Below are positions 1,637-10,475 of a DNA stretch of 10,475 nucleotides, one piece after another. Position 1 is the first letter of the stretch. Every line of letters starts with the position of its first letter. This stretch comes from Tubiluchus corallicola (Eukaryota; Animalia; Priapulida). The DNA is taken from contig JAQGDQ010002186.1 in NCBI GenBank assembly GCA_030141605.1, positions 1-10,475 of the forward strand, given 5' to 3'. The position numbers were made by a program, and so were the translations under genes. Under the pieces are notes generated by a model, which worked only from the letters and a program-made list of their open reading frames with translations, made no database searches and was not told the origin of the DNA.

Positions 1637-1810
1637 TATGCACCCTTATGTCGAAGTATAATGGCGGCCATTACGTTTCCGCTTTGCCAGTTCTAGTTGA
1701 AGCTGCCATAACTTTAGCAAAGCATCTCATACAGGCAGTTCTTCTGATTTGTTTAAAAGAATGTTGTTTTTAAACACATCACTACATGTTTGGGCTTTAC
1801 CTCCTTGACA

Positions 1811-1820
1811 CCGCCTCCTT
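1811..1820 (-). promoter_or_regulatory. Polypurine tract (plus-strand DNA primer)
   Basis: Minus strand AAGGAGGCGG, ~80 nt after the pol stop and immediately followed by TGTCAAGG, the expected TG start of a 3' LTR at 1810. Confidence 0.75.
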
Positions 1821-1899
1821 AAATGTATGTTAGACATTTACTATTTACTACAAAGAGTTTAACTGAGCAAAAATCTTTATGAACTGTGCAATCTAATTT

Positions 1900-4800
1900 T
1901 TACAGTGCTTCTCCTTTAAACTCATCAAGTGCGCTTTCAATCAAGCATAATCTGTGAATGGGGCGCTGCAGCTGCCCATCCTTTGTTTTTAGTGTTACGC
2001 TTCTCACTAGGCCGTCTCTTCCAACATGTTTTTCCGTTATTCGAGCAAGAAGCCAACAACTTCTGGGGGTTTCATCCATTATCAGTACAACGTCGCCTAT
2101 TTCGACATCCTTCTTCTGACGATTCCATTTTGAGCGGATCTGGAAAAGCGGCAAGTACTCTGTCTGCCAACGTCGCCAAAAGACATCAACTAAGTATTGG
2201 ATCTGGCGCCATTTGCCGCGATAGATGTCTGCTGATGTAAACTTTCCAGGAGGCAGGTTTGTTAAGTTACACTTCGCCAACAGCAGGTGATTGGGCGTCA
2301 GAGGACTACAGTCTTTTGGGTCGTCCGAGGTTGCCGTTAAAGGCCTACTATTGACAACGTTTTCAACAATGCAGAATAGAGTGTTGAGAGCTTCATCGTC
2401 AAGAGCTTGTTCGTTTGTCACAGAGAGCAAATGCTTCTTGACAATCTTGACCATTGCTTCCCATACTCCTCCCATGTGGGGAGCTCGGGGCGGATTATAC
2501 TCCCACTCGATGTTCTCCTTGAGCAAGTCTTTCTGAATAGTGTTGTGATTCCACTCTTTCATAGCCATGGATAGTTCCTTGTTAGCACCTATAAAATTAG
2601 TGCCACAGTCGGACCTAATTCTGTTAGGTTTGCCTCTTCTGCTACAAAATCTATGGAGTGCTTTAATGAAGGAACCTGTAGACATCGAGAAGAGTACCTC
2701 CAAGTGGATGCTTCGTGTGGCTAGACAAGTAAAGAGTGCCCCATAACGCTTCACCTCGATTCGACCGCGTTTGACCACAATTGGTCCAAAGCAGTCCACG
2801 CCAACCGCAGAGAAGGAGCCTTGTTGAACTCTCTCAGGAGGCAAGTTGGCCATCTTTTGTTGCAGTGGTTGAGAGTAACGCAGCCTACATTGTCTGCATT
2901 CATGAATTACTTTCCGCACCATGACTCGCATCCCAATTATCCAGAACGCTCTACGGACTGAAGCCATGACATGTTCTCTTCCTGTATGTACATTTGCCTC
3001 GTGGAAGTGCTGTATGACAAGCCAGGAGAGTCTATGATTTTTGGGAAGAATAACAGGATGACGAGCTTCATGATCTACTAGAGCATCTTGCAGGCGACCG
3101 CCGACACGCAAAATTCCCTCTTTGTCAATAAAGGGATCGAGCCTATACAGGCAGGATGATTTGGTTACAGAGCGTTCTCGGCATGTAGATTTGGTACGGG
3201 AACACATCGTCTTATATTCTTTGTTGAAACTTTGTTTCTGTGTGTGTCTGATCAGCTCATTCTGGGCCTCATTTAATTCAGTCAGAGTTAGATTTGTGGA
3301 ACAATCCATATCACTTCCGCCAGAAGCTTTTCTGTGCAATATTGTTTTGGCTCGTAATAACCAGGCTAAACCTCTTTTTAGCCTGTAAAGGGATGAGTAA
3401 TGCTGCAACAATTGATCTATGACATTATTTGAAGTTCCTTTGCATTCTACGACGCTCACAGTGGCTGACCGCTTTACTTCTTTGTCATTAGCTAGTATGT
3501 CATCCGAATCTAAATTAGTCTGCGGCCACGAAGCTTCATCTTTTCTTAAGAAAGATGGAGCAAACTTCCATCTATTGGAAAGTAGCAATTCTTGAGCGCT
3601 CATGCCTCGGGAAGCATCATCAGCACAGTTGTCTGTTGAGCTAACAAACCGCCATTGAGTTGGTGAAGAAACTTGCAAGATTGAGTTGACACGGTTTTGG
3701 ACAAATGTATGAAACCGCTTTGCTGTGTTCCGAATGTAATGAATAACTATCTGACTATCAGTCCAGAAGACCGACTGATCTGTACCAACACAAAAGGATA
3801 GCTCTTCCCTTAGCATTTGATCAACTTTAGAGGCTAAAACTGCAGCACAGAGTTCAAGACGCGGTATTGTAAGACCTCTAAGTGGAGCAAGTCTTGATTT
3901 AGCCATGAGGAATGCTGTGTGAATTTCACCTTGAGCATTCTTCATACGTACATAACTGACAGTACCATAGGCATAGTTCGAAGCATCGCAGAAATGATGC
4001 AACTGCAACTGGAAAATCAGGCCAAAATCACGAGGCTTTATGCATCTCTCCAACTTGAATTTTTCTAGTGCGACACAATCTTCTTTCCATTTCACCCATT
4101 CGGCTTCTGTATCTCGTTCTAGAGCGTCATCCCAATCCTTTTTCTGAATTCTACATTCATCTTGGAAGAGTTTTTTGACCTGCAGAACGAATGGACAGAT
4201 CATTCCTAATGGGTCATAGACTGACGAAATGCAGCTTAACATTCCTCGTTTTGTACTGGGCTTAACTTTGAGTGAAACCAAAATTCCAAGGCAATCTTCC
4301 TCAACTAGCCATTTAACTCCCAGTACGCGATCAGCTGGCAGAGGGCTCTGAGTTAAGTCAAGATTCTTGACTTCGCTTCCAAGTTCTTCAGCAGGCACAG
4401 ATGCCAAGACCTCACGTCTGTTGCTCATCCACTTAGTTATGTGGAATCCACCAAGAGACAATAAGGCAGTCAGTTGAGAAACTAGCTGTATGGCTTCATT
4501 CACGGTGTTTAGCGATTTTAAAAGGTCGTCCACATAGAAGTTTCTCAAAACGGTAGCGACAACATTTGCGGGAAACAGATCTGCATTGTCATTGGCAGTC
4601 CTTTGCAAAGCAAATGATGCAACGCTCGGAGACCACACCCCACCGAACAAGTGTACACACATTCTAAAAGTACATGGTTGACTGTTAAGATTACCATCTT
4701 TCCACCAAAGGAAACGCAACATATCTCTGTGTTTTGGAGACACGATCACCTGGTGGAACATCTCCCGGATATCCGCCATTACTGCAATAGGATTGTCTCT

Positions 4801-4938
4801 AAACCGAAGCAAAACTCCAATGCACGTGTTTGTAAGATCTGGCCCTTGCAATGCTAGTTTATTTAGAGATATTTCATTTGTTTCCGCTCCTGCATCAAAA
4901 ACGATGCGAGTTTTCTCCGGTTTATTGGCATTAAACAC
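1900..4938 (-). CDS. pol: BEL/Pao Pol: reverse transcriptase, RNase H (Pao peptidase A17 family) and integrase
   Basis: RT: RIVFDA, LRFR, ADIREMFHQV, HLFGGVWSP, FYVDD (YVDD at 4525-4536). RNase H: FCDAS (D at 3985-3987), RLEL, WTDS, NCAD. Integrase: H..H (3001-3003, 2986-2988), CRQC (2887-2898), D (2794-2796), D (2608-2610), E (2458-2460), and a C-terminal DUF5641-like region. It is a continuation of the polyprotein, not an independently initiated gene. Confidence 0.95.
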   Translation of the reverse strand: MFNANKPEKTRIVFDAGAETNEISLNKLALQGPDLTNTCIGVLLRFRDNPIAVMADIREMFHQVIVSPKHRDMLRFLWWKDGNLNSQPCTFRMCVHLFGGVWSPSVASFALQRTANDNADLFPANVVATVLRNFYVDDLLKSLNTVNEAIQLVSQLTALLSLGGFHITKWMSNRREVLASVPAEELGSEVKNLDLTQSPLPADRVLGVKWLVEEDCLGILVSLKVKPSTKRGMLSCISSVYDPLGMICPFVLQVKKLFQDECRIQKKDWDDALERDTEAEWVKWKEDCVALEKFKLERCIKPRDFGLIFQLQLHHFCDASNYAYGTVSYVRMKNAQGEIHTAFLMAKSRLAPLRGLTIPRLELCAAVLASKVDQMLREELSFCVGTDQSVFWTDSQIVIHYIRNTAKRFHTFVQNRVNSILQVSSPTQWRFVSSTDNCADDASRGMSAQELLLSNRWKFAPSFLRKDEASWPQTNLDSDDILANDKEVKRSATVSVVECKGTSNNVIDQLLQHYSSLYRLKRGLAWLLRAKTILHRKASGGSDMDCSTNLTLTELNEAQNELIRHTQKQSFNKEYKTMCSRTKSTCRERSVTKSSCLYRLDPFIDKEGILRVGGRLQDALVDHEARHPVILPKNHRLSWLVIQHFHEANVHTGREHVMASVRRAFWIIGMRVMVRKVIHECRQCRLRYSQPLQQKMANLPPERVQQGSFSAVGVDCFGPIVVKRGRIEVKRYGALFTCLATRSIHLEVLFSMSTGSFIKALHRFCSRRGKPNRIRSDCGTNFIGANKELSMAMKEWNHNTIQKDLLKENIEWEYNPPRAPHMGGVWEAMVKIVKKHLLSVTNEQALDDEALNTLFCIVENVVNSRPLTATSDDPKDCSPLTPNHLLLAKCNLTNLPPGKFTSADIYRGKWRQIQYLVDVFWRRWQTEYLPLFQIRSKWNRQKKDVEIGDVVLIMDETPRSCWLLARITEKHVGRDGLVRSVTLKTKDGQLQRPIHRLCLIESALDEFKGEAL

Positions 4939-5109
4939 TGGAAAATGGGAAAGAAACCATTTCCTGCAGGTAGGGTCATCATCTTCATCGACCTCTTCTG
5001 CATATCATTTCTTGAATAGGTCATTCATAGCTATAGTGTATCGGTTGTGCAATTCTGGGATCCTCTGCAGCCGTTTACGTAGACTTTCCAATCTAGTTGA
5101 AGCCATTTA
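4939..5109 (-). pseudogene. Disrupted in-frame PR-RT connecting segment with two premature stops
   Basis: Same frame as both flanking ORFs (6975-4938 = 2037 nt, a multiple of 3). It reads LPDTL*MASTRLESLRKRLQRIPELHNRYTIAMNDLFKK*YAEEVDEDDDPTCRKWFLSHFPV, matching the Pao pre-RT consensus (LP...A..RL.SL..RL...Y......KGY.EEV...W(Y/F)LPH.PV). Stops are TAA at 5107-5109 and TGA at 5005-5007. Confidence 0.88.
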
Positions 5110-6975
5110 TAGCGTATCTGGTAAAACATCATTCTCAGATTTAAATGGGATGTCCAACTGGTAATGCCCATGTGGTTTTGTGATTGAAGCCTCCCATATA
5201 TCGAGAGCACGCATATCGTCTCTAGAGAATTGTCTGTCCGACTTGCTAGTTTCAATTTTCCAGAATTGTTCTATTTGCTGCTGCAAGGAATTGGTTTCTC
5301 CATGTGACAATGCATTGGCTTGGGTCAAATTACTACAAATGCGCCCTAAATTAGGAACGCCGCCTCCTATGGGTCCATTAAGGGTCCAGCCTAGCTTCGT
5401 CTTCACAGCATATGGCGTTAGTCTAGGACCTGTTCGTACCTCAAGAGGAATCAGCGCATCAGGAACATCCTGGCCGATCAAAAGGCCAAGCTCAGTTAGG
5501 TCTTCTGTATCTGTGAACGATAGGGGAAGTCCTTGCAAATGCGGCCATTGTTCTACATCCTTGCTAAAGGCCAAGCAGTCCTTTTCCAGTAACAATGCAG
5601 GCCTAACGAAGACATAAGGCAAAGCTATTTTATTGCCAGTGTTTACCCCAATAACAGACATCTTCGTGATTAAAGTGTTTATCTTGGAATATTTCTCTTC
5701 TATAGTGGTTAAAGAGAGCGTTCGTTTTTGTCCAGTAGCCCCAAGTTTGTCGAACAATGCCTTTGTACAAAAAGTGTTAGTCGAGCCAAGGTCAAGTAGG
5801 GCTAAAGTACGCACGGGCATCTTCCCATCAACTTCACCCAAAACTGAGACAACAGGGAGAGCCGCTTTGCCGCCTTCCTTAATACTAGCACAACTGCTAG
5901 AAGCCTCTGGTTTGCAATGTGTTGGCGCTTTTTTCTCCTTGCTTCCATCATTGTTTTTAGAAGGTGACATTTTCTCCAAGGCAGCATGCAGTAAATTTGA
6001 ATGCTTACGTCTGCAACCTTCTACGTCGCATCCTGCTTGGAAGCACCGAGCAGCCCTGTGCTTTCCTTTAATCAAACAATTGAAGCAAAGACCTTCTTTT
6101 CTGGCGTTTTTCAATCTATCAGAATCATTCATTGACTTAAATTTATTGCATAGCCTGAGTGAACGGTGTTCCGTAGAGTCACATAGAAAACAAGGTATAT
6201 CTAGGCGTTGAGAAGCCATTTTGCTACCACTTCCGGTTGTATTTCCGGGTTGTCGTTCACTGTTGCATTTCGTAATTGACGCAGTTTCCTGCGCTGAGCT
6301 CGCGAAATTCCTGGCTTTGGTGTCGCGTCTACCTTTTGGGCTCCTAGTAGGCTGACTAACGTCGCCAAAGACAGGATGATTCATTTTATCAGCTGCGTCC
6401 TTAATGAATTCGACTACATCAAATATCGTTGGATTCCTGTGCTCATATTTCAGAAGCCTGGCTTCAACATCCTTCCACCTATCCTGGAACTTGAATGGGA
6501 GTTTTTTAATTATTTGTAGCAAACTGCATTGAGTACTAATTTCGCAAACGTTGTTCATTATTTTCAAAGTTTCCACACAAGCCACAATCAAATCAGAAAA
6601 TTCCTGTAACTTTCCCGGTTCATTTATCTTTATGGGCTCAAATTCAGCAATTCTGGAAAGCCAGGCCTGTGTGACAACAAATGGCGAGCCGAATCTTTCG
6701 GTTAAAAGCTGTTTAGCATGCCCATATGCAAAACGGGGGTCCATGTAATTACAACTGTCAACAACTCTTTTAGCTTTACCAATGCAGAGTTTGGCTAACC
6801 TAGTGTACCTCGCTGCATCATCTTGGGTATAGTTCTCCACGCTGGCTTCGAAACGCTTGATAAAGCTCCAGAACTTCATTACGTCACCATCAAACGTTTC
6901 AAGCTGCACGTGGGGAAGCTGCATAGCATTGTACATATTTAAGTGTTGCCTTTGGCCTTCTAACATGAGGTCCAT
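5107..6975 (-). CDS. gag: BEL/Pao Gag (capsid region, DUF1759-like, plus nucleocapsid Zn knuckles) and aspartic protease
   Basis: LPHVQLETFDGDVMKFWSF and L.ERFGSP motifs. Zn knuckles CFLCDSTEHRSLRLC, CFNCLIKGKHRAARC and CDVEGCRRKHSNLLH at 5986-6192. Protease ALLDLGSTNTF (5782-5793), LLIGQD, and the Pao motif PYAVKTKLGWTLNGP. Confidence 0.92.
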   Translation of the reverse strand: MDLMLEGQRQHLNMYNAMQLPHVQLETFDGDVMKFWSFIKRFEASVENYTQDDAARYTRLAKLCIGKAKRVVDSCNYMDPRFAYGHAKQLLTERFGSPFVVTQAWLSRIAEFEPIKINEPGKLQEFSDLIVACVETLKIMNNVCEISTQCSLLQIIKKLPFKFQDRWKDVEARLLKYEHRNPTIFDVVEFIKDAADKMNHPVFGDVSQPTRSPKGRRDTKARNFASSAQETASITKCNSERQPGNTTGSGSKMASQRLDIPCFLCDSTEHRSLRLCNKFKSMNDSDRLKNARKEGLCFNCLIKGKHRAARCFQAGCDVEGCRRKHSNLLHAALEKMSPSKNNDGSKEKKAPTHCKPEASSSCASIKEGGKAALPVVSVLGEVDGKMPVRTLALLDLGSTNTFCTKALFDKLGATGQKRTLSLTTIEEKYSKINTLITKMSVIGVNTGNKIALPYVFVRPALLLEKDCLAFSKDVEQWPHLQGLPLSFTDTEDLTELGLLIGQDVPDALIPLEVRTGPRLTPYAVKTKLGWTLNGPIGGGVPNLGRICSNLTQANALSHGETNSLQQQIEQFWKIETSKSDRQFSRDDMRALDIWEASITKPHGHYQLDIPFKSENDVLPDTL

Positions 6976-7982
6976 AAAACGTTCATGTCATTCCGACTAG
7001 CCCTACCGGAGAAATTCCTAGAATTATTTTGAGCACCGCTACCATAAGAAGCCTGAGGCGATGTAGCCGGAAGCGGAAGTTGCGTATTCCATGGGACGAA
7101 ATCACGTGCAGAAATATTTAAAGTTTGCTCTACCTGAGGTGATTTAAATGCGGCATGGAAGAACGGCGTAGTCTGTTTAACGCTAGGTTCTAAACCTTCA
7201 CTGGGAGAATTTTCGAAGAAGGGCTGTACATCAGACAAATAGATATCCCACCATCTACGAAGAAAACCTGATTCATAGTCATCCGACAAATTGACGGAGA
7301 TCTCCCCGTTTACATATTCATTATAATCCCAGGGCTTCTTTCGGCCTAAAAAGTGCGCAACTTTAATCTTGCTACTGAACTGCTTCATTGCAGGAAGGTA
7401 ACCGTAACGACCTTGGACGGCAGCATTATACACAAAAGGTTGGCGTTTGTCAAACTGTGAACTCCAGTTCGGAAAGGCTAAATTTAATAAACCCTGATCA
7501 CCGCCATCGAATGAACAGGCCTCAGTTTGTGATAGTGACAACAATCTACTGTAAGTTTCCAAACTAGGCTGAAATACAAACATTCCAGAATTAAAACAAT
7601 CAGGCCACCCCACATCTGGGGCAGCCGCAAGCTCATTATAATTGAATAACTCATCAATATTATCTAATACTAAAGTATCAGCATCTAAGTAAACGCATTT
7701 AGTAAACTGTGTCATAGACCAGCAGTGCAATTTCGAGAATGTTACATTTAGCTCTGGCCTACCTAGCAAATGCAAGTTATCAAAATCACTACTCTTTAAT
7801 AAATCAATCATTTGTACATAATCAAAAACATTACTAAGCTCTGCCATAACTCTGCTAGAAACAGTATGGGTGACCAAAATTGCTAGATGTCGAGCTGTAC
7901 CAGTTCGACGCAAACTGTGTGCCAAGACAAGAGCTCCATTAGCATAACTGTCGATCGTTGCCATGGTGAGATAGGCCTCCAT
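6960..7982 (-). CDS. GYG1: Intronless glycogenin-like glycosyltransferase family 8 domain (~7982-7210) followed by a Ser/Pro/Gln-rich linker leading to Gag
   Basis: Colinear with animal glycogenin-1 motifs: AYLTMATIDSYANGALVL, RPELNVTFSKLHCWSMTQFTKCVYLDADTLVL (DxD at 7677-7685), AAPDVGWPDCFNSG, SFDGGDQGLLN, PFVYN, YGYLPA (acceptor Tyr at 7398-7400), VAHFLGRKKPW, WW. The first ATG at 7982 matches the glycogenin N-terminus; the ORF-track start at 8102 is a GTG. The symbol denotes homology, not orthology. Confidence 0.93.
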   Translation of the reverse strand: MEAYLTMATIDSYANGALVLAHSLRRTGTARHLAILVTHTVSSRVMAELSNVFDYVQMIDLLKSSDFDNLHLLGRPELNVTFSKLHCWSMTQFTKCVYLDADTLVLDNIDELFNYNELAAAPDVGWPDCFNSGMFVFQPSLETYSRLLSLSQTEACSFDGGDQGLLNLAFPNWSSQFDKRQPFVYNAAVQGRYGYLPAMKQFSSKIKVAHFLGRKKPWDYNEYVNGEISVNLSDDYESGFLRRWWDIYLSDVQPFFENSPSEGLEPSVKQTTPFFHAAFKSPQVEQTLNISARDFVPWNTQLPLPATSPQASYGSGAQNNSRNFSGRASRNDMNVLWTSC

Positions 7983-8047
7983 AGACGTATGATGAACTGC
8001 AGGCTTGGTGTCTGATGACTGGGCTTTGGCGACTATTGAGGCCAGGT

Positions 8048-8054
8048 GTCGCCA
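8048..8054 (-). promoter_or_regulatory. Candidate primer-binding site
   Basis: Minus strand ...GTTACA-AG-TGGCGAC. TGGCGAC is complementary to tRNA 3' ends in GTCGCCA (some Arg/Ser tRNAs) and lies 2 nt after a CA. Only a 7-nt match can be supported. Confidence 0.25.
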
Positions 8055-8731
8055 CTTGTAACTTATAGCTATACTAAATTTGACAAACAAAATCCTTGAC
8101 ACCTGGCTGCATCTTTGCGAAATTTAAAAAGATATTTTTTGTGTTTTTGCAACTCACTGCTGAGCAATTTAATAGCGCCTGTTAACCGGGCTGGTTTTGA
8201 TGGTCTCATCAATTCATCTGCTACAGTACCCACAGCCTGCGCTGTTGCGTACCTGACAACAACAGTCCGTACTGAATAGCCGCTAGGGCGACACTAACTG
8301 CGCGAACTACTGCGCAGAAGGACTTTCCCTACTTTATTGTGTATACTTTGCTGTGTATGTATACGTCTTTTGGGTTTACCATGTTGCCTTGTCTCTGAAG
8401 CCAGAAACAATGCGATCGAATGAGTGACGTGTAAATATGACTTTCTAATAATGGCTCAAATAAATTATTGCTGTTGATAAGAATAAAGGAACAAATTATA
8501 ATTTTTTTGTGCTTTGTCCCTGACACCCATAACGTCATAATCATATTTGCGTGCTAGTATCTCCTGTATTCTTTCCCAGCTTCTAGATGTAACTTTTGGA
8601 ACAATAAAAAAAAACAAATTTGAATTTTTCATGTACCGTCAAGTGCTTCATTTGTACTTCATTACTACAAATAAAATTACTACATTTTCTGACTCGCAGT
8701 TTTCTGTTAAATTGATGACTTCTCAATGCAA

Positions 8732-8779: not shown

Positions 8780-9135
8780 ATGTTTCAATTTTATTTTACA
8801 GAAAATCAGCTTGACACTTGCAATGAGCGCTTGGCATTATCTTCGCATCCCCAGACGGTTGATAGCTTGATACAAGTTACATAACAAAACTAAAAAAAAA
8901 TTGAAACGCCAAAACTTGGTGAAGTTATGAGTTATGAAAACTAACTGCATCACATCGAATTTCAAGGTTAATTGTGCAATAAAAATGCTGTCATTACAAG
9001 GCATTATTAGTCAAATTCTACTCGAAATACTGAAATGTAAACACATTGAAGAAGTCTCACAAGATGAGACAACAACCTGAGGCTTCATTTATGATCTATA
9101 ATAAGTATAATAAATTCACGAATATATATTCTCGA

Positions 9136-9152
9136 ATATATATATATATATA
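9136..9152. repeat. (AT)n microsatellite
   Basis: atatatatatatatata, bracketed by the inverted pair ctcgaat (9131-9137) and attcgag (9155-9161). Confidence 0.85.
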
Positions 9153-9656
9153 AGATTCGAGGCCACAGCTTCGACGGCGGCACCATTTGCGACGATCTAT
9201 ACATCAAACGAAAGGTCTCGATTTAGTGTCGTGCTATTGGGGGTTTATTCTTCGAATCGGACGAACGGGAGGCGAAAAACCTCCAATAAATGACCAAACA
9301 GCGTGGAGAAAAACCGTTCTAGCGGCGCCTGGTTGGACTCTCGAAATGAGATATACGGCTTTTTAGAAAGAGCAAGAACATGACTATACGATGATGTGGG
9401 CTATGTGTTAGTACACGTCCACCAAGAGGAATGAGACGAGTTAATTATATGTTCTATTTTTGGCAATTTTCGCTAGGAAAACTGCTGACGCAAAGACATT
9501 GTTCTGATGTCATCCTATATCTGCCTATAATCTTATAACTTTAATACAGTAAAAGCTGCTGCTGCTGGCTTTGCGTTATAAATGAGGACTGTGTAGGATG
9601 TTCGCGTATTATTGATTATAAGTGTATTTATACGCAATTTTTTGCGGGGCCTTTGC

Positions 9657-9778
9657 GTTTCCACTCGTCGGCACAGACAGACTTTTCTGTTCGCACGTTT
9701 TGCGTCCGCAAAAGTTGTTTCTACTGCGTCCGCACGGACAGACTTTTCTGTTCGCACGTTTTGCGTCCGCAAAAGTTG
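9657..9778. repeat. Tandem duplication, ~61-bp period, two copies
   Basis: gcac(a/g)gacagacttttctgttcgcacgttttgcgtccgcaaaagttg at 9671-9717 and 9732-9778 (47 bp, one mismatch). The copies are preceded by the similar gtttccact-cgtcg and gtttctactgcgtcc. Confidence 0.92.
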
Positions 9779-10475
9779 GGTCCGCATTCATTTCGTAGCA
9801 TGCTACATAAAATATCATACATGCCGCGAAATTTTGGGCTTTCTAGAAGAAACAATAATTTGATTTTGCTACGTCGGTTAAAGAAAAGGACAAATAGGCA
9901 ACACAACAAGCGATTACGTCGTTCCTGAGCTCGAAAACAGTTAACAGCTAGGCGAATATCATCACATCGCAATAATGGATGAGGAAGACGTACCTAAATT
10001 AAGAATGCAACTTGCGATGTTCCGTATTTTTGGAATTTAAATAGATTGGGTATATTCAGTTTAATTCGTTGAAAGAGAATTGCTGTCAAGATAGAAATAT
10101 TTGGGCATATATATTTTTTACAGTTGCAACTGAACAACTATGTAATGTAAGTTTGAAAACGTGGACTAGCAAGATCAACATGGCAACGTCGAAATACTGT
10201 AAGAATTATAGCATATAGCTGTTTACTATACAGTGTAATTGCTTACTGTAAATTTTAAAAAAATCCCTTGAACGAGGAGTCGCATGCCGAGCTAAATTTC
10301 CAAAAGTTTGGAAAGAAGTAAAGTTAATAACAAAAACTAAATGTTCAACATTCATTACTGACCTCAAAAGCTATTTCAGTTAGCAAAGATTTTGTAAACT
10401 ATCAGTGATTGCACATAGGGGTACTCGTATCATAGAGGAGAAGCCAAATTCTACAGCGTGCATAACTTATTCCTT

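Follow-up and report, generated by a model that had tools for sequence, protein, structure and literature searches.

A glycogenin-Gag fusion in a BEL/Pao retrotransposon

The DNA analysed here (the window, 10,475 nt of contig JAQGDQ010002186.1, assembly GCA_030141605.1) comes from Tubiluchus corallicola and carries, with all coding parts on the minus strand, a BEL/Pao retrotransposon in which the catalytic domain of glycogenin stands in front of Gag. The in-frame joining of glycogenin to Gag is, with high confidence, a property of the element family, as an earlier note on this DNA had proposed, and this is based on contigs that cross the junction and on multi-copy depth in public sequencing runs. 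The stretch is present in four runs of two studies, and the species label led to two further runs; the runs are named X1 to X6 below. No RNA run was listed among those that contain the stretch, and X6, a presumed RNA run, gave no contig matching the window, which speaks neither for nor against expression. The parts of the element, including the long terminal repeats (LTR) and a stretch resembling a primer-binding site (PBS), are listed here.

8057..8101, minus strand: LTR-like segment at the 5' end (TG...CA); its putative 3' end, placed in front of the PBS-like stretch, would make it about 45 nt long
8041..8054, minus strand: putative PBS-like stretch, beginning TGG, 2 nt behind the CA; read from the sequence
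7215..7982, minus strand: glycogenin catalytic domain (glycosyltransferase family 8, GT8), intronless, codons 1-256
6976..7214, minus strand: S/P/Q-rich linker, likely of Gag origin, without the glycogen-synthase-binding tail
7092..7121, minus strand: PAM2-like motif in the linker, common to the N-termini of related Gags
6960..6987, minus strand: glycogenin/gag junction; the frame break occurs in the window copy only and is missing from the bridging contigs
5107..6975, minus strand: gag, with DUF1759 and three Cys-His motifs, followed by the aspartic protease; the window copy has a stop at 5107-5109
1900..5106, minus strand: pol, with reverse transcriptase (RT, YVDD), Peptidase_A17 / RNase H region, integrase and DUF5641; stop at 5005-5007 in the window copy
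1811..1899, minus strand: 3' untranslated region, its last part being the polypurine tract (1820-1811)
1802..1810, minus strand: 3' LTR remnant, first 9 nt kept, followed by an unrelated high-copy repeat

In the window copy, the glycogenin open reading frame (ORF) runs from an ATG at 7982 to a stop ending at 6960 (minus strand, 340 aa), and the gag ORF opens in another frame at an ATG at 6975, giving the 16-nt overlap with the glycogenin stop that had been noted earlier. The junction is bridged by contigs of X1 (6701-7296), X2 (6620-7155) and X4 (6633-7029), which are about 98% identical to the window and all lack its frame break; the two-frame overlap is therefore a lesion of the window copy. 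A gag contig of X5, from a third sample, extends 28 nt into the linker, also without the break. Since no other copy shares the break, programmed frameshifting as a link between glycogenin and gag was rejected. This copy is damaged at three places, the frame break near 6975 and the in-frame stops at 5107-5109 and 5005-5007, the last of which is shared by none of the four runs examined.

The depth in X1 is 961-1682 for single glycogenin contigs, 1327 at the gag junction and 1716-1727 for pol, against 239-251 for the flanks, with element/flank ratios of 3.9-7.0 in X1 and 4.2-6.2 in X2; contig depth is not true copy number, which tells against a literal use of these values, and they are read as several copies in which glycogenin is as numerous as gag. 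Further points weigh against the fusion as a family trait. The runs X1, X2 and X3 derive from one sample, possibly the source of the window itself, with X4 belonging to another study; most of the linker is uncovered in X5; and the unit is assembled from overlapping contigs, the stretch from the LTR to gag being found in no single contig.

The earlier note had itself raised two other explanations, a single host retrogene beside a 5'-truncated element and a misassembly, and both are now extremely unlikely. The out-of-frame ORFs of the window and its nearly absent 3' LTR would fit them; however, the junction occurs in contigs from independent samples, glycogenin and gag have equal multi-copy depth, an LTR start lies upstream of glycogenin, and the linker contains a Gag-type motif (see below). 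A host retrogene would be expected as a single copy outside the element with a poly(A) tract, whereas here the depth is 4-7 times that of the flanks, the gene lies inside the LTR start and there is no poly(A). Likewise, non-silent changes predominate among those found only in the window copy (15 of the 19 listed rows overall, and 6 of 7 inside the domain), the pattern that an insertion in decay should show.

Ends of the element and position of glycogenin

The 9 nt starting at 8101 reappear right behind the polypurine tract at 1810-1802, and two contigs of X1 and one of X4 (with at least 255 unaligned letters) connect the 8101 segment to the 3' untranslated region at 1813-1842. Because these contigs join the 8101 segment to the polypurine-tract side, the LTR starts at 8101, and the glycogenin domain is situated within the LTR-bounded unit. 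The element thus has direct LTRs that begin with TG and share the same start (8101 and 1810), with a polypurine tract before the 3' LTR, which in the window ends after 9 nt. The CA at 8057, followed by the stretch that starts with TGG, suggests an LTR of about 45 nt; from the LTR start to the glycogenin ATG there are 119 nt, and the LTR is shorter than 119 nt in any case. LTRs of BEL/Pao elements are usually 0.2-1.2 kb, and those of Sinbad 102-2110 nt (PMC3118150 and its supplement 9); a length so far below the usual range is a point against the overall explanation proposed below.

An absence of LTR, PBS and poly(A) between glycogenin and gag had been described before. No long direct repeat was found in the glycogenin-gag interval by a repeat search of the window, nor a poly(A) tract behind the glycogenin coding region in the window, so this part of the description stands; upstream of glycogenin, at 8101-8041, an LTR start and a PBS-like stretch are nonetheless present. 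A location of glycogenin inside the LTR was rejected, since its depth equals that of gag and is not doubled in X1 and X2.

As a separate observation, a perfect 10-nt inverted repeat (8107-8098 / 8050-8041) flanks the LTR-like segment, with six letters upstream of the LTR start, and folds at -23 kcal/mol (calculated with no shuffle control); a self-priming hairpin is one idea for it. At 8029-8033, loose contig ends occur on both sides in X1 and X4, and they look like another element inserted in one copy with a 5-nt target duplication.

Coding content of the BEL/Pao element

In a domain search, the gag ORF contains DUF1759, three Cys-His motifs and then a protease motif, and the pol ORF (5004-1900) contains Pfam domains for RT, Peptidase_A17, integrase and DUF5641. 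A Gag with DUF1759 and three Cys-His motifs, and the order protease-RT-RNase H-integrase with Peptidase_A17 and DUF5641, place the element in BEL/Pao. The three Cys-His motifs of Gag and the Gypsy-like gene order are shared with the BEL/Pao elements described in PMC3118150, and the element span of 6.3 kb lies within the 4.2-10 kb given there; it differs from them by the glycogenin at the Gag N-terminus and by its apparently unusually short LTR. The best Gag relatives are 38% identical and come from marine invertebrates and metagenomes. Among the ORFs and sequence of the window, no env gene was found in the interval that separates pol from the polypurine tract.

The linker and the front of Gag

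The N-terminal extensions of Gag relatives have a median length of 264 aa and a range of -12 to 464 aa, measured in the 61 of 70 relatives whose alignment begins at the start. A PAM2-like motif is present in 13 of the 58 relatives with extensions of at least 100 aa (0.37 expected). The same motif occurs in the linker at 7121-7092, with a chance of 0.002 in shuffled linkers, and in only 1 of 120 tails of host glycogenins. The linker is therefore likely of Gag origin, and since a motif characteristic of the N-termini of related Gags survives in it, the glycogenin would have replaced the front of Gag. This agrees with the earlier view that glycogenin took the place of the Gag front; the length of about 20 aa given there for the Gag part before the LP..FDG motif does not hold, as the Gag-like linker makes this part longer than 20 aa. 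The PAM2-like motif might recruit poly(A)-binding protein; a literature search for PAM2 motifs in retrotransposon Gag returned nothing on point.

The glycogenin domain

Residues 2-256 match human glycogenin-1 (1e-81) in a single unbroken frame, in agreement with the intronless and complete glycogenin domain on the gag strand that had been reported, and the Pfam Glyco_transf_8 match has a value of 6e-17. An AlphaFold model (mean predicted local distance difference test 68, 12-row alignment) has glycogenins as its top structure matches, with a template-modelling score of about 0.79. The GT-A fold, the DxD metal site (D100/D102) and residues D159, D162, H210 and K216 are kept and identify the domain as a glycogenin; T9, Y13, R75, K84, D123, W126, N131, Q163, Y193 and Y195 are also present. 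The acceptor tyrosine Y193 aligns with human Y195, and equivalents of the human dimer-contact residues Y197, D160 and W128 (PMC12267440) are present. In human GYG1, Y195 is the autoglucosylation site and the helix proline P238 aids autoglucosylation (PMC12267440).

In a comparison with 191 host domains, 66 of 73 near-invariant columns are retained in the element, and 33 of 103 variable ones; its median identity to them is 0.526, the host minimum being 0.571, and its identity to any glycogenin found is at most 59%. Of 120 long host glycogenins, 116 have a C-terminal motif for glycogen synthase binding that the element lacks, with the limit that the pattern fails on 86 of 238 further glycogenin matches, non-animal and partial ones among them. 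Going by these alignments, the catalytic and acceptor residues are intact and the synthase-binding tail is lost, and the domain is somewhat more probably enzymatically active than not.

As a side observation, a loose end before 7719 in X1 leads into a contig whose glycogenin sequence resembles that of ordinary animal glycogenins; it may be an exon of the host gene.

Selection and decay

Run X5 holds a diverged lineage, about 12% apart in gag-pol (contigs 85.6-88.5% identical), with glycogenin contigs 88.8-91.5% identical to the window and 0 gaps. Silent changes make up 5 of the 7 domain differences listed for X5, where neutrality would give a share of 0.278 (p=0.02); two of these seven rows are found also in a more diverged contig, and one row found only there was left out. 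For the X5 and X4 variants together, 11 of 19 are silent (p=0.006). In X1, the catalytic domain has no indel and 0 of 17 tested substitutions make a stop (of 22 places of change, 18 are listed and 17 were tested), and only the window copy carries the non-conservative losses at codons 10 and 181. The domain has probably been kept by selection.

Several results count against selection on, or activity of, the domain. The test of silent changes uses 40 of 94 difference rows, chosen by support, and short contigs. The conservation relative to other glycogenins may predate the capture, because the trees place no donor. The proline P238 of human GYG1 is not retained. Over 7345-7689, the deepest X4 contig (127, the gag-pol contigs having depths of 25-48) shows a gap of 2 nt at codon 151 together with a change in the catalytic codon 162, and a second X4 contig lacks alignment over 13 nt of the linker; copies whose glycogenin is dead have multiplied in this run. 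Purifying selection across copies, which had been named earlier as something that would support the claim, has modest support from the excess of silent changes, and the X4 copies with broken glycogenin do not conform to it.

The X4 copies and the domain's divergence bear on whether glycogenin is only passenger cargo, i.e., transduced into a variable Gag N-terminus, tolerated as a folded spacer and held in frame only for the Gag behind it, with its enzyme function irrelevant. The widely varying length of the relatives' N-terminal extensions, the amplified X4 copy with broken glycogenin and the longest branch of 76 rows for the element glycogenin would suit this explanation; however, it is unlikely given the excess of silent changes between lineages, a glycogenin identity at least as high as that of pol, and the full catalytic set despite 53% median identity to host glycogenins.

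Beside these results, a frame-broken glycogenin variant in X4 spans 7345-7800 and is deeper than gag-pol; the dead X4 derivatives are probably non-autonomous copies. In X5, a contig of 1065 nt (record 20) carries a more diverged glycogenin, colinear with that of the element over 213 nt (7473-7685), and has a depth of 21.8 compared with 3-14 for the X5 contigs of the family; it is either a second glycogenin-bearing family or the host gene.

Origin of the captured domain

The missing introns make a capture through spliced RNA (mRNA) plausible. The element domain has the longest branch among 76 rows in a quick tree (1.43 compared with a median of 0.19). A FastTree of 233 rows groups it weakly with ichthyosporeans (0.81); in a careful tree of 38 rows, it lies, without a star, next to two unnamed proteins on the margin of an animal-containing group, and no starred group of that tree contains it. 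A non-animal donor was considered on the strength of the FastTree grouping, which is lost in the careful tree. The state of a 7-residue loop is homoplasious.

Proposed mechanism

Here it is proposed, as the explanation that on balance fits best, that the element carries a captured glycogenin in frame at the front of Gag, likely still self-glucosylating and dimer-forming, on the outside of the particle. The domain would have been acquired in the course of reverse transcription, when the element recombined with spliced glycogenin RNA, and would have displaced a coiled-coil front of Gag, leaving Gag's own linker in place. Glycogenin acts as a dimer. In a Belpaoviridae capsid, the N-terminus faces outwards and can accept a fused domain (bioRxiv 10.64898/2026.03.22.711591), and glycogenin glucosylates its own tyrosine (PMC12267440); from these properties we infer a self-glucosylating, dimeric outer module on the particle, or on the Gag precursor at the least. 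The glycogenin-Gag protein would then assemble with glycogenin outside the shell, the module could dimerise with its neighbours or with host glycogenin, and UDP-glucose could be used to build a short alpha-1,4 glucose chain on Y193. Gag or whole particles may dock onto glycogen granules, which would serve as a site of assembly and storage and would be inherited in glycogen-rich germ cells, and the protease may release the glycogenin module at maturation.

With the tail lost, and with it direct recruitment of glycogen synthase, a full glycogen coat is unlikely, which argues for short self-made glucans or dimer-mediated docking. Docking to glycogen granules, through the glucan or host glycogenin, is put forward as the purpose only tentatively. 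A wider version, in which the capsid glucosylates itself and hitches to glycogen granules for storage and inheritance, several diverged families exist in this animal group (record 20 of X5 being a second one), and the capture is old and adaptive, is slightly more speculative still.

Alternatively, the domain could have been selected for shielding, with a short glucan layer hiding the particle, or as a tail-less decoy that diverts host glycogen priming. The loss of the synthase-binding tail would be in line with either, non-priming glycogenins can suppress glycogen synthesis (PMC12267440), and baculoviruses carry a GT8 gene, p13 (PMC4133818). Nevertheless, this explanation is quite unlikely, since particles are probably intracellular given that no env lies between pol and the polypurine tract, and since the described suppression acts through synthase binding, which the element protein would lack.

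Comparison with known systems

The search for the architecture of glycogenin with BEL/Pao domains that had been recommended gave no other example among the proteins searched. A first set of glycogenins comprised the 120 long ones listed of 659 matches (596-2000 aa; the read-through product would be about 2027 codons), and a second set comprised 238 further ones, including the best 150 of 644 at 1e-30; BEL protein matches were found in 0 of the 120 listed and 0 of the 238, and no retroelement domain in 14 long or odd glycogenin matches. PF01501 was listed in 0 of the 70 Gag relatives, BEL sequence was found at 0 of 80 JGI glycogenin loci (80 of 353 confirmed, mostly short transcript-like contigs), two viral-contig scans gave no glycogenin, and the ESM Atlas gave plain glycogenin/GT8 clusters only, with no fusion. 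An exact look-up of the window proteins in a protein collection matched 0 of 6. No description of a glycogenin-retroelement fusion was found in the literature, most subscription journals being outside the search. LTR elements with captured cargo are known; glycogenin cargo at the front of Gag could not be found described.

As in the planarian giant Gypsy elements Burro and GYPSM1 (PMC6431247), host-derived domains are held in frame in the Gag polyprotein; those elements are Gypsy, with Gag N-terminal and the cargo after it (BIR, BCL2, MATH, ankyrin, SUMO-like and dUTPase), and "glycos" occurs 0 times in that review. The LTR elements of bdelloids (PMC5408684) have also captured enzymes, in an enzymatic ORF3 (GDSL esterase and DEDDy exonuclease); there they form a separate third ORF of lipid and nucleic-acid enzymes, whereas the element has a Gag-fused sugar transferase. 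Baculovirus p13 (PMC4133818) is likewise a virus-borne family-8 glycosyltransferase, although it is a free-standing gene of a large DNA virus and not capsid-fused. Animal glycogenin-1 has in common with the element domain the fold, the DxD, the acceptor tyrosine and the dimer-contact residues; the element domain differs in its low identity to every glycogenin found, in the lack of the synthase-binding tail and in being fused to Gag. In the Gag-onc fusions of transducing retroviruses, spliced host sequence has recombined into gag, and the host part follows and replaces Gag or Pol, the virus being defective. In contrast, the host part of the element precedes a complete gag-pol.

LTR elements are known for envelopes, nucleases, lipases and regulatory domains; a carbohydrate-priming enzyme at the front of Gag would tie particles to glycogen metabolism, and offers a direct test of glycogen granules as platforms of assembly and inheritance for mobile elements. 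If true, nature would also have provided a case of a Belpaoviridae shell that displays an enzyme, and one of a glycogenin working without its synthase-binding tail.

Surrounding sequence

Rfam and tRNA scans of the window gave no match. Very high-copy non-coding repeats flank the element (1-700, 1401-1750, about 8110-8340 and 9100-9800), with depths up to 5e5 in X1, and a 52-nt direct repeat is located within 9666-9778.

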